A stretch of DNA of 64,000 nt, from the NCBI RefSeq assembly GCF_055900595.2, contig NZ_CM148325.1; one strand, 5' to 3'. The translations under genes and the position numbers were made by a program. The notes beneath the pieces are model-generated. The model saw only the letters and a list, made by a program, of their open reading frames with translations, did no database searches and was not told the DNA's origin. Below, piece after piece: positions 58,127 to 62,133 of this stretch; positions within the stretch are counted from its first letter, which is position 1, and each line of letters opens with the position of its first letter.

Positions 58127-58265
58127 TTCAGTACCTCACGACTCGGAAAAAATGCCGTTGCGCGCACAGTTCAACGCAACTTATTTTGTTAAAAACATGT
58201 AAATGATTTTTTATTGTGCGCTCAGTATAGGAAGGGTGTTTTCGGCTACAATCAAAACATGCCTG

Positions 58266-58286
58266 AGTGTGCACCAGGTGCACAAC
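58266..58286. promoter_or_regulatory. candidate MhpR operator palindrome (gtgcacc-a-ggtgcac) in the mhpR-mhpA divergent region
   Basis: Near-perfect 15-17 bp palindrome seen between the divergent mhpA and mhpR starts. Confidence 0.5.
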
Positions 58287-58316
58287 GTTGTTTTAAATAT
58301 AGAAATGTCAATTAAT

Positions 58317-59150
58317 ATGCAGAAAGATGAGCAGACGGAATACAAAACCGTGCGCGGCTTAACCCGCGGTCTAATGTTATTAAATATGTTAAATAAACTC
58401 GATGGCGGTGCCAGCGTCGGGCTGCTGGCGGAGCTCAGCGGCCTGCATCGCACCACTGTGCGGCGACTGCTGGAAACGCTGCAGGAAGAGGGATATGTCC
58501 GGCGCAGTACCTCCGATGACAGTTTTCGTCTGACCATCAAAGTGCGGCAATTAAGCGAAGGATTTCGTGACGAACAATGGATTTCTGCACTGGCAGCCCC
58601 GCTGCTGGGCGATCTGTTGCGCGAAGTGGTATGGCCGACAGATGTGTCCACGCTGGATGTTGATGCAATGGTGGTACGCGAAACCACCCACCGTTTCAGC
58701 CGTTTATCTTTTCACCGGGCAATGGTCGGACGGCGTTTACCGCTCCTGAAAACCGCCTCGGGACTGACCTGGCTGGCCTTTTGCCCGGAACAAGAACGCA
58801 AGGAGTTAATCGAAATGTTAGCCGCCCGCCCCGGTGATGACTATCAACTGGCACGGGAACCGTTAAAGCTGGAAGCCATTCTGGCGCGCGCACGCAAAGA
58901 GGGTTACGGACAGAACTACCGTGGCTGGGATCAGGAAGAGAAGATCGCCTCCATTGCCGTGCCCCTACGCAGTGAACAACGGGTGATTGGCTGTCTGAAT
59001 CTGGTGTATATGGCAAGCGCAATGACCATCGAACAGGCAGCGGAAAAGCATCTTCCGGCGCTACAACGGGTAGCAAAACAGATCGAAGAAGGGGTTGAAT
59101 CGCAGGCTATTCTGGTGGCCGGACGGCGAAGCGGCGTGCATTTACGCTAG
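58317..59150 (+). CDS. mhpR: IclR-family activator MhpR
   Basis: ORF track 58203..59150; start placed at MQKDEQTEYKTVRGLTRGL (277 aa). Confidence 0.9.
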   Translation: MQKDEQTEYKTVRGLTRGLMLLNMLNKLDGGASVGLLAELSGLHRTTVRRLLETLQEEGYVRRSTSDDSFRLTIKVRQLSEGFRDEQWISALAAPLLGDLLREVVWPTDVSTLDVDAMVVRETTHRFSRLSFHRAMVGRRLPLLKTASGLTWLAFCPEQERKELIEMLAARPGDDYQLAREPLKLEAILARARKEGYGQNYRGWDQEEKIASIAVPLRSEQRVIGCLNLVYMASAMTIEQAAEKHLPALQRVAKQIEEGVESQAILVAGRRSGVHLR

Positions 59151-59264
59151 TTGCGCCAATGTGTAATTTGGCCCATTCTCATCGTTATTCGCCCATTTGC
59201 CCACATGCACAGTACGGGCTGCACGCTACGCTAATGCCATCAATACTGTGATGTGGAGCAAATC

Positions 59265-60041
59265 ATGAAAATTACTCAAATTCGTAATGCCACCCAAATT
59301 ATCCAATACGCTGGCAAAACATTTCTTATTGACCCGTTACTCGCGCCTAAAGGAAGTTATCCGGGTTTTGCCGGAACGGCACGCGCAGAAATCCGCAATC
59401 CAACGGTAGAATTACCGTGCGATTTAACAACGTTACTCAACGTTGACGCCCTAATAGTGACCCATTTGCATGAAGATCATTGGGACGAAACAGCCTCCCG
59501 CGTCGTCCCCAAAGATAAACAGATTTATGTGCAAAATGAGCAAGATGCTGAATCACTGCATAAACAAGGATTTACGCATCTTACCGTACTTGCCGACGAG
59601 ACTAAATTTGGCGATATTACTCTGCATAAAACGACAGGGCAGCACGGCTCCGATCGCACCTATGCAGACCCGGCTATGGCGAAGCGTTTAGGCGCAGCCT
59701 GCGGCGTTGTTTTCCAGCACCCGACAGAGAAAACGCTCTATCTGGCTGGCGATACCCTCTGGCGTGATGACGTCGAGGCTACAATGCTAACTTTCCAACC
59801 AGAAGTGGTGGTGTTGAATGCCGGATTTGCGCATGTTCTGGGGCATGGCGCGATAATTATGGGAGCTGAAGATATTCTCAAAACACATTTTACCCTGCCA
59901 GAAGCGCAAATTGTCGCGACACATATGGAGGCCGTAAACCACTGTTTGCTGACGCGTGATGCGCTCAAGGAATACGCCAGAGATAATCAAATTATCGAAT
60001 TTGTGAACGTACCAGAAGATGGTGAAACGTTGACATTCTAA
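59265..60041 (+). CDS. metallo-beta-lactamase-fold hydrolase (HxHxDH motif THLHEDHWD), function unknown
   Basis: ORF track 59253..60041; start placed at MKITQIRNATQ with a GGAG RBS upstream; motif seen directly. Confidence 0.8.
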   Translation: MKITQIRNATQIIQYAGKTFLIDPLLAPKGSYPGFAGTARAEIRNPTVELPCDLTTLLNVDALIVTHLHEDHWDETASRVVPKDKQIYVQNEQDAESLHKQGFTHLTVLADETKFGDITLHKTTGQHGSDRTYADPAMAKRLGAACGVVFQHPTEKTLYLAGDTLWRDDVEATMLTFQPEVVVLNAGFAHVLGHGAIIMGAEDILKTHFTLPEAQIVATHMEAVNHCLLTRDALKEYARDNQIIEFVNVPEDGETLTF

Positions 60042-60060
60042 TTCGGAGATAAAGAGTGTT

Positions 60061-61014
60061 ATGCGCCCGCTAACTGTTGCCATTATCGCCGTTGCCGGTT
60101 TTAGTCCTTTTCACCTTTCCGTACCGTTTATCGTGTTTAGCGAAAAAATGGCGGAGAAAAAACGCTTTCATGTAATTATCTGCGCTGAAAAGCCGGGAAA
60201 TGTGGACTCTGCCGATGGGTTTTCCGTAACCGCCACCCATGACTATACGGCAGTCATCCAGGCGGATATTGTGATAATTCCTTACTGGGGAACAATTACA
60301 CAAAAACCGCCACAAAAACTGCTGGAAGCCTTAACGATCGCACGAGATAACGGGGCACAGATTGTCGGGCTTTGCCTGGGCACGTTTGTGCTCGGCTATG
60401 CAGGTTTACTGAACAATAAGCGTGCTGCCACGCACTGGGAGTTCGAGCGTGAATTTCAGGCACGTTTTCCACAAACACATCTGGATATTAACGCGTTGTA
60501 TGTAGACGATGATGGCATTATTACCTCTGCCGGTACTGCCGCGGCGCTGGATTGCTGTTTGTATATTGTTCGGCAACATTTTGGCAGCGACTATGCTAAC
60601 CATATTGCCCGACGGATGGTCGTACCGCCATATCGCACCGGCGGTCAGGCGCAGTTTATAGAGCAACCGGTGCCGAAAAATACCCATGATGAACGCATTA
60701 ACCTCCTGCTGGATTACCTGCGGCAAAACATTGCGCAACAGCATGATCTCGACTCGCTGGCTCAGCGAGTAATGATGAGTCGCCGCACACTAACCCGTCA
60801 TTTTATGAAAGCGACCGGTTCGAGTATCGCCGAATGGCTCATCACTGAACGCTTACGCCGTAGCCAGGAACTGTTGGGATCCAGTCAGTTGCCCGTTGAG
60901 CGGATAGCGGCTGAGGTGGGTTTTCTCTCACCTGTGACCTGGCGTCAGCATTTTAAATCTCACTTCGGCGTCAGCCCCGCAGAATGGCGCAAAACCTTTC
61001 GTGGTATGGCATGA
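60061..61014 (+). CDS. GlxA-type regulator: N-terminal DJ-1/PfpI-like domain + C-terminal AraC-family HTH
   Basis: ORF track, 317 aa; C-terminal AraC signature (...SPVTWRQHFKSHFGVSPAEWRK); RBS ggagataaag upstream. Confidence 0.85.
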   Translation: MRPLTVAIIAVAGFSPFHLSVPFIVFSEKMAEKKRFHVIICAEKPGNVDSADGFSVTATHDYTAVIQADIVIIPYWGTITQKPPQKLLEALTIARDNGAQIVGLCLGTFVLGYAGLLNNKRAATHWEFEREFQARFPQTHLDINALYVDDDGIITSAGTAAALDCCLYIVRQHFGSDYANHIARRMVVPPYRTGGQAQFIEQPVPKNTHDERINLLLDYLRQNIAQQHDLDSLAQRVMMSRRTLTRHFMKATGSSIAEWLITERLRRSQELLGSSQLPVERIAAEVGFLSPVTWRQHFKSHFGVSPAEWRKTFRGMA

Positions 61015-61015
61015 T
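60987..61015 (+). promoter_or_regulatory. lacI promoter (-35 gcgcaa, -10 catgat) lying inside the last ~10 codons of the upstream GlxA-type gene
   Basis: Sequence gaatggcgcaaaacctttcgtggtatggcatgatagcgcccggaag matches the classical lacI promoter region (site of the lacIq -35 change) from memory; here it is the 3' coding end of the upstream ORF. Confidence 0.7.
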
Positions 61016-61050
61016 AGCGCCCGGAAGAAAGTCAATTCAGGGTGGTGAAT

Positions 61051-62126
61051 GTGAAACCAGTAACGCTATACGATGTCGCGGAGTATGCCGGTGTCTCTTA
61101 TCAGACCGTTTCCCGCGTGGTGAATCAGGCCAGCCACGTTTCAGCGAAAACGCGGGAAAAAGTGGAAGCGGCGATGGCGGAGCTAAATTACATTCCCAAC
61201 CGCGTAGCACAACAGTTAGCGGGCAAACAGTCGTTGCTGATTGGCGTTGCCACCTCCAGTCTGGCCCTGCACGCACCGTCGCAAATTGTCGCGGCGATTA
61301 AATCTCGCGCCGATCAACTGGGTGCCAGCGTGGTGGTGTCGATGGTAGAAAGAAGCGGTGTCGAAGCCTGTAAAGCGGCAGTACACAATCTTCTCGCGCA
61401 ACGCGTAAGTGGTCTGATCATCAACTATCCGCTGGATGACCAGGATGCCATTGCTGTGGAGGCAGCCTGCGCTAATGTTCCGGCGCTATTTCTTGATGTC
61501 TCTGACCAGACTCCCATCAACAGTATTATTTTTTCCCATGAAGACGGTACGCGGCTGGGCGTAGAGCATTTGGTCGCATTGGGTCACCAGCAAATCGCGC
61601 TGTTAGCGGGCCCATTAAGTTCTGTCTCGGCGCGTCTGCGTCTGGCGGGCTGGCATAAATATCTTAAACACAATCAAATTCAACCGATAGCGGAACGGGA
61701 AGGCGACTGGAGCGCCATGTCCGGTTTTCATCAAACCATGCAGATGCTGAATGAGGGCATCATTCCTACCGCGATGCTGGTTGCCAACGATCAGATGGCG
61801 CTGGGTGCAATGCGCGCCATTACCGAGTTCGGGCTGCGCGTCGGCGCGGATATCTCGGTAGTGGGATACGACGATACCGAAGACAGCTCGTGTTATATCC
61901 CGCCATTAACGACCATCAAACAGGATTTTCGCCTGCTTGGGCAAACCAGCGTGGACCGCTTGCTGCAACTCTCTCAGGGCCAGGCGGTGAAGGGCAATCA
62001 GCTGTTGCCCGTCTCACTGGTGAAACGAAAAACCACCCTGCCACCCAATACGCAAACCGCTTCTCCCCAGGCGTTGGCTGATTCCTTAATGCAGCTGGCG
62101 CGACAAATTTCCCGACTGGAAAGCGA

Positions 62127-62133
<7 letters not shown>
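61051..62133 (+). CDS. lacI: lactose repressor LacI, GTG start
   Basis: ORF track 61042..62133; canonical start GTG AAA CCA GTA (MKPVTLYDVAEYAGVSYQTV), 360 aa. Confidence 0.95.

Follow-up and report, generated by a model that had tools for sequence, protein, structure and literature searches.

What stands between mhpR and lacI in those Escherichia coli genomes that do not share the K-12 arrangement, and where did it come from? In strain MG1655 the two genes (lacI, 366428-367510; mhpR, 367587-368420) are separated by 76 bp, with no gene between them. The DNA analysed here, a 64,000-nucleotide stretch of contig NZ_CM148325.1 from assembly GCF_055900595.2 (hereafter the window), holds two further genes at this position: one for a hydrolase with the metallo-β-lactamase (MBL) fold, and one for a transcriptional regulator, known in other strains as ovrA. 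Together they probably constitute a detoxification module of the SaxA (isothiocyanate hydrolase) type, ancestral at this site and deleted from most E. coli.

An intact gene pair

An initial annotation, made from the letters of the window, had described a 258-residue MBL protein, a 317-residue regulator with a DJ-1/PfpI-like amino-terminal domain and an AraC helix-turn-helix, a 19-bp gap between their genes, and the adjacency of mhpR and lacI in K-12. All of this is borne out. The metal-binding motif THLHEDHWD is intact (H67, H69, D71, and H72); the open reading frame and Pfam assignments agree for the regulator; and the gap spans 60042-60060. Both genes are intact and co-directional, and a GGAG sequence lies 6 nt 5′ of the hydrolase ATG. 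The proposal of a regulator-enzyme pair with a detoxification-type role is likewise supported. Two further analyses that the annotation had suggested, placing the MBL protein in a subfamily and surveying lacI-mhpR spacing across E. coli, were carried out.

The chromosome of E. coli Z0117EC0005 is 100% identical to the window at this locus. There, the Prokaryotic Genome Annotation Pipeline (PGAP) calls mhpR, "MBL fold metallo-hydrolase," "GlxA family transcriptional regulator," and lacI.

O-island 19

The two genes have been catalogued before, as O-island 19 of E. coli O157:H7 EDL933, in which z0443 is the hydrolase gene and z0442, or ovrA, the regulator gene. The island occupies the same place between mhpR and lacI, with orthology, position, and flanks identical to those of z0442 and z0443. 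Genomes of O157:H7 carry the segment at 97.7% DNA identity (98% for the MBL protein and 99% for the regulator). The window itself belongs to a non-O157 lineage, and a dog isolate matches it exactly. About 1831 nt in the window stand in place of 7 nt of K-12, a size that fits the published 1834 bp of O-island 19 and its two genes (PMC8565820, PMC10877973).

Names differ among records. The Sakai annotation labels ECs_0400 a "hypothetical protein" and ECs_0399 a "transcriptional regulator"; newer PGAP records write "ovrA: OI-19-encoded virulence regulator OvrA" on copies 97.7-99.8% identical to the segment. The MBL protein is named only "MBL fold metallo-hydrolase" in public databases.

The O-island literature describes z0443 as a gene of unknown function in an acquired island; the present analysis places it in the SaxA family and the island among ancestral genes. 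In the literature searched, no paper tied z0443 or OvrA to the sax system, described a conserved operator, or called O-island 19 ancestral. These additions are modest refinements, and no new kind of system.

Acquired or ancestral?

The initial annotation took the pair to be inserted. The literature on enterohaemorrhagic E. coli (EHEC) similarly sees a horizontally acquired, EHEC-type island, in which OvrA is a dedicated activator of LEE (the locus of enterocyte effacement) and the MBL gene a passenger without a known function. Reviews write of "horizontally acquired OIs," O-island status is defined by absence from K-12, and the pair coincides with a slight dip in GC content. The genetics also favour this account: the AraC-like OvrA recognises 17 bp of the LEE1 promoter and turns on ler, and both adherence and mouse colonisation, which it promotes, are lower upon ovrA deletion; z0443, listed as of unknown function, can be deleted without a virulence phenotype (PMC8565820, PMC10877973).

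Against acquisition, Citrobacter and divergent Escherichia lineages also have the pair at this site. Contigs whose proteins bear the label E. marmotae align co-linearly with 9.7 kb of the window (93.5% nucleotide identity), and "unclassified Escherichia" (cryptic-clade) contigs with 8.9 kb (95.1% identity). Gene order in both is mhpCBA / mhpR - MBL - regulator - lacIZY. In eight species of the Citrobacter freundii complex, 1.6-2.6 kb of variable small genes separate mhpA-mhpR from the MBL-regulator pair, beyond which lies lacI. Most Citrobacter also carry a gene for a 202-residue methyltransferase-like protein between the regulator gene and lacI (locus L007, 7743-8351, minus strand; L009, 7756-8364). 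This gene is internally deleted in C. youngae ATCC 29220, where regulator and lacI are 143 bp apart (L012, 7747-7890).

Two types of genome without the pair retain pieces of the regulator gene. In K-12-type genomes, the 33 nt directly 5′ of lacI, GAATGGCGCAAAACCTTTCGCGGTATGGCATGA, are the final ten codons of the regulator (EWRKTFRGMA) and its stop codon; the segment that corresponds to 60982-61050 of the window is the sole part of the region kept (K-12, L093, 1512-1587). In B2 strains (UTI89, L003, 2395-3136; type strain DSM 30083), 99 nt of the regulator gene are joined to yaiL. The B2-type genomes also lack the whole mhp cluster, and PGAP calls the 99-nt remnant a GlxA pseudogene. Two different left junctions thus share the same right-hand sequence, a pattern that insertion cannot explain. 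Among 5426 complete E. coli genomes, 4458 have the K-12-type junction (mhpR beside lacI), 487 the B2-type (yaiL, remnant, lacI), and 435 the intact pair; this last set is rich in O157:H7 and O145:H28 genomes and reflects biased sampling.

Neither the annotation nor a repeat search revealed mobility genes, a tRNA or att site, or flanking direct repeats at the pair. The pair and its upstream element (see below) are conserved, moreover, in many genera that have no LEE, and LEE activation may be real yet secondary. Because of the synteny, the remnants, and the lack of a mobility signature, we read the pair as the ancestral state of this site in Escherichia and Citrobacter, and the K-12 arrangement as a deletion, the reverse of an insertion. 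An acquired virulence island with a passenger enzyme is accordingly improbable.

At the K-12 deletion junction (TGACACCATC), a search of both flanks for microhomology, or for the origin of the filler CACCATC, gave no convincing source. Eight base pairs at 59151-59158 recur, perfectly inverted, at 60985-60992 (TTGCGCCA / TGGCGCAA); these are the two edges of the sequence that K-12 lacks, and the lacI -35 hexamer falls within the right copy. This match could be chance: 11 similar pairs occur in 2.8 kb.

A SaxA-family hydrolase

The initial annotation had left the substrate of the pair unknown. The enzyme proves to be a full-length homologue of the isothiocyanate hydrolase SaxA. Pfam assigns the 258-residue protein to Lactamase_B_2 (2.7e-11). 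A phmmer search of the PDB gives more: 6BRM, the "metal-dependent isothiocyanate hydrolase SaxA" of Pectobacterium, matches with E = 2.8e-87 (residues 1-258 versus 1-259; 53-54% identity), and the Veillonella protein 3RPC with E = 1.8e-72 (47% identity). The E. coli protein and 6BRM share the MBL fold, length, and metal-ligand set, are co-linear over all 258 residues, and carry no signal peptide; Pseudomonas-type members have one at the amino terminus. In an alignment of 13 family sequences that includes 6BRM and 3RPC, residues H67, H69, D71, H72, H127, D163, and H220 are invariant, and the E. coli hydrolase retains 63 family-invariant positions.

A neighbour-joining tree rooted on 3RPC groups E. 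coli with Citrobacter, then with Enterobacter/Lelliottia and Klebsiella/Raoultella, and so resembles the species tree. The E. coli protein thereby falls into a chromosomal enteric clade, separate from 6BRM. Within the family, the clade is placed between a Pseudomonas/P. versatile group and the group of 6BRM, with moderate support in a tree that carries no bootstrap values. Membership in the SaxA family is well supported by these comparisons.

What would the enzyme hydrolyse? SaxA catalyses R-N=C=S + H2O -> R-NH2 + COS (PMC7036374). The family is widespread in Enterobacterales, where five saxA clusters are known with catalytic properties preserved in all, and P. versatile and P. odoriferum become less virulent on Arabidopsis and cabbage, both Brassicaceae, once saxA is deleted (PMC7036374). 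PSPTO_3100 of P. syringae is also saxA. The E. coli protein, by homology, likely hydrolyses isothiocyanates as well.

The enteric SaxA-family enzymes could instead act on some other small molecule sensed by the regulator: another electrophile, an ester or lactone, or a compound derived from host or diet. Identity to the characterised enzyme is only 53-54%, NCBIfam yields a weak match to a generic metal-dependent hydrolase, relatives bear the Joint Genome Institute (JGI) label "UlaG-like," and the gene is expressed in an RpoS-dependent manner without isothiocyanate (PMC2907692). The preservation of activity in all five enterobacterial clusters (PMC7036374) argues otherwise, as do the bracketing of the E. 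coli clade by clusters with characterised enzymes and the retention of all catalytic ligands together with the family-invariant positions. As a matter of general knowledge, gut E. coli of herbivores and humans meet dietary isothiocyanates. A different substrate is therefore unlikely, and isothiocyanate hydrolysis remains the preferred reading.

Related genes occur in other settings. A second saxA-like gene (63% amino-acid identity) resides on plasmids, followed by genes for a helix-turn-helix regulator and an "ester cyclase" (pTET-GZEC065, IncY; L094, 5001-7192). There are matches in 367 plasmid records, 128 of them from E. coli, with others from Salmonella, Cronobacter, Providencia, and Pantoea; some E. 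coli without the chromosomal pair may thus own a plasmid copy. The contig WIAG01000136.1 (L067, 2850-3826), labelled "MAG: Nitrospira sp. CR1.2," has a tet-operator promoter and a T7-type ribosome-binding site (TTTGTTTAACTTTAAGAAGGAGATATACAAATG) directly ahead of a gene that encodes a protein 100% identical to SaxA 6BRM. An expression vector has contaminated this metagenome-assembled genome, and the gene is not one of Nitrospira.

The adjoining regulator

Pfam finds DJ-1_PfpI (PF01965, 3.8e-11) at residues 6-171 of the regulator and HTH_18 (PF12833, 3.4e-19) at residues 233-311; HTH_AraC is also assigned. The same combination of DJ-1/PfpI-like sensor and AraC domain characterises the GlxA/GATase1-like AraC regulators FtrA, GbdR, and CdhR, as well as SaxC, whose gene lies beside saxA: the Pseudomonas sax gene set includes saxC as its transcriptional regulator (PMC12903958). 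Two more specific identities were rejected. The FtrA equivalog NF006902 scores 323.2 bits against a curated cut-off of 425, so the protein is related to FtrA without being FtrA; GbdR scores 126 bits against a cut-off of 480.

How general is the pairing? A single family-alignment scan of 100,044 species genomes returned at least 600 candidates, and the best 80 species-level loci were analysed. Escherichia relatives were located through exact-protein look-ups, and the lack of an Escherichia species representative among the best 80 is uninformative. A GlxA-family gene adjoins the hydrolase gene in 74 of these 80 loci. In 64 loci it follows the hydrolase gene directly on the same strand, as in Enterobacterales, and its product is 51-83% identical to the E. 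coli regulator; in the other 10, of the Pseudomonas/Stutzerimonas type, it is upstream and divergent (44-45% identity). The six loci without an adjacent regulator include one cloning vector and two truncated contigs.

From the position of the pair, the initial annotation had drawn a hint that it is tied to the breakdown of aromatic compounds by mhp. No mhp gene lies within 6 kb of the pair in Enterobacter, Klebsiella, Pectobacterium, Aeromonas, and others; since in most genera the pair comes without mhp, a role in mhp catabolism is rejected.

Residues C105, H125, W126, and C165 are invariant in all 73 regulator orthologues, and C166 is present in 71. The closest solved relative of the sensor domain is InhA, an isonitrile hydratase (E = 5e-13), and C105 aligns with the cysteine of its VCTG motif. 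This cysteine we take to be Cys101, the catalytic nucleophile that attacks an electrophilic carbon. InhA is a DJ-1/PfpI enzyme; for the regulator, a transcription factor, no catalytic activity is known. Since isothiocyanates react with thiols, covalent sensing through C105 is an attractive but improbable hypothesis.

Two relatives show altered regulator genes. In Citrobacter amalonaticus (L015, 6774-7746), only regulator residues 189-316 are detectable downstream of the hydrolase gene, and the regulator may be disrupted in this representative of the species. In an E. marmotae-like assembly (L088, 5797-6751), it is split into open reading frames of 42 and 280 residues: a frameshift or sequencing error, and possibly ongoing decay.

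A conserved upstream element

Upstream of the hydrolase gene, the E. coli and Citrobacter sequences become homologous abruptly at TTGGCCC (59168) and stay so up to the start codon. An operator-like element (Table 1) marks the beginning of this homologous stretch. Its core, TTGRCCNNATNNCATCG with TGNCC and GCCAC after it, is found ahead of the MBL gene in 53 of 66 same-strand loci when a single mismatch is allowed; among 1620 shuffled controls, none comes as close. Its range extends from Escherichia to Aeromonas and Marinomonas, and most Pseudomonas-type loci show one to four mismatches. In the 64-kb window the element is single-copy.

The element overlaps the -35 region of the putative hydrolase promoter. 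The candidate -10 hexamer, TACGCT, was recognised by cross-genus alignment, in which it corresponds to TACGAT in Citrobacter and Klebsiella and to TATACT/CATACT in Pectobacterium and Aeromonas. A σ70 consensus scan of 58900-61300 called no plus-strand promoter. A class II activator site of the AraC type would accord with the spacing of the half-sites, their place just upstream of a weak -10-like hexamer, and their conservation together with the regulator. The element is thus a putative binding site of the adjacent regulator.

The lacI promoter

The hexamers of the lacI promoter are GCGCAA (-35) and CATGAT (-10), as described by Calos in 1978. In the window, GCGCAA occupies 60987-60992, inside the ovrA codons for W-R-K, and CATGAT occupies 61010-61015, across the ovrA stop codon TGA (61012-61014); transcription is expected to start near 61023. 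An NheI site created by an A-to-C change overlaps the lacI -10, which fits CATGAT (PMC7049694). A scan of the ovrA-lacI interval found no terminator-like structure. Read-through into lacI is therefore likely where the pair is intact, and lacI may be co-transcribed with it.

The Citrobacter alignment suggests how this overlap arose. There the W-R-K codons stand at the 3′ end of the regulator gene, and a GGCATCAT/GGCATGAT-AGCGC block is separate, just upstream of lacI; a -10-like GGCATCATAGCGC block adjoins lacI. The Escherichia lacI promoter may thus be a fusion, formed when the intervening DNA was lost, in an order of events read from the alignment.

Two side observations concern the neighbouring genes. 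The longest open reading frame for mhpR encodes 315 residues (ATG at 58203; 58203-59150) and is used by the Sakai annotation, whereas PGAP and K-12 have the 277-residue form that starts at 58317; the discrepancy is one of annotation only. E. coli MB06232, from Galapagos seawater, holds a lacIZY copy only 93% identical to that of E. coli, beside an integrase gene and ISEc33 and away from mhpR (L085, 3212-10285). A mobile element appears to have brought in this lac operon.

Table 1. Features of the mhpR-lacI region, in positions of the window
Feature	Position	Strand	Remarks
mhpR	58317..59150	+	Left neighbour, IclR-type activator of the mhp operon; PGAP call mapped from an identical record, and open reading frame
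Operator-like element	59168..59204	+	TTGGCCCATTCTCATCG-N5-CGCCC-N4-GCCCAC; two TGNCC-type half-sites about 21 bp apart; putative regulator site
-10 hexamer of the hydrolase promoter	59227..59232	+	TACGCT, weak; putative, from cross-genus alignment only
saxA-family MBL-fold hydrolase gene	59265..60041	+	z0443 / ECs_0400 orthologue; ATG start, 258 residues; predicted isothiocyanate hydrolase
ovrA	60061..61014	+	z0442 / ECs_0399; GlxA/SaxC-type regulator, 317 residues; DJ-1/PfpI amino-terminal, AraC helix-turn-helix carboxyl-terminal
lacI promoter and leader	60982..61050	+	Overlaps last 33 nt of ovrA; read from the sequence
lacI	61051..62133	+	Right neighbour; GTG start; PGAP annotation and open reading frame

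A model for the module

These observations suggest a simple model. The hydrolase would be a cytoplasmic, metal-dependent MBL enzyme, akin to the characterised SaxA members that turn isothiocyanates into an amine and carbonyl sulfide. Isothiocyanates are the mustard-oil toxins of crucifer plants. The regulator would be a DJ-1/PfpI-AraC activator of the kind found beside saxA across Gammaproteobacteria, represented by OvrA in EHEC. In the presence of an electrophilic ligand, it would act at the tandem element, over the -35 region, to switch on the hydrolase-regulator operon; the module is probably self-regulated in this way. Transcripts would continue past ovrA into lacI. Most E. coli, K-12 included, have lost the module by deletion, and the published activation of LEE1 by OvrA is best taken as a secondary use of the regulator. 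The homology, the intact catalytic motifs, the gene pairing, the conserved element, the synteny, and the remnants were observed; we infer isothiocyanate as the substrate in E. coli, the ligand of the regulator, its binding to the element, and read-through into lacI.

Several points weigh against this model. For the enzyme, the role in E. coli derives from homology and the tree has no support values; the SaxA authors themselves note that, in Enterobacterales not associated with plants, saxA "may serve additional purposes" (PMC7036374), wording that also suits a different substrate. For the regulator, the likeness to SaxC was drawn through the Pseudomonas/Stutzerimonas neighbours of saxA homologues (the 44-45% identical group), and not from SaxC of P. 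syringae. The invariant C105 may be a structural feature of the DJ-1 fold only. In P. viridiflava, an isothiocyanate did not induce saxC and induced saxA only slightly (PMC12903958). Z0443 is well expressed in EDL933 without isothiocyanate, with about tenfold dependence on RpoS (PMC2907692), and its expression thus does not depend strictly on a ligand. The OvrA site published for LEE1 (GACATTTAATGATAATG) matches the upstream element only weakly; its reverse complement shares CATTnTCAT by eye. Finally, the GC content of the pair is 47.5-50% and that of the flanks 53-57%, a modest dip.

Outlook

The model provides a concrete proposal for the function of z0443, hitherto an "unknown" gene of O157:H7, namely isothiocyanate hydrolysis, and suggests what natural signal the virulence regulator OvrA might answer to. 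Sulforaphane suppresses type III secretion in P. syringae, and in Xanthomonas a LysR-type sulforaphane sensor controls saxF. By a speculative extension, which we regard as doubtful, OvrA would itself be an isothiocyanate (electrophile) sensor, through C105 or its DJ-1-like pocket, and would induce the hydrolase and, in EHEC, the LEE genes. If OvrA does sense isothiocyanates, diet, in the form of crucifer mustard oils, would be linked to EHEC colonisation. As a corollary, the lacI promoter would be a relic of the ovrA 3′ end, and lacI, where the pair is kept, would be co-transcribed with an isothiocyanate-responsive operon.

If confirmed, the proposal would bear on the survival of EHEC on Brassicaceae produce and in crucifer-fed animals, and on the use of isothiocyanates as food antimicrobials. 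The label of the locus changes as well: what was called an acquired island consists of ancestral genes that are gone from K-12. The classic weak lacI promoter turns out to sit in the tail of a gene that K-12 has deleted.

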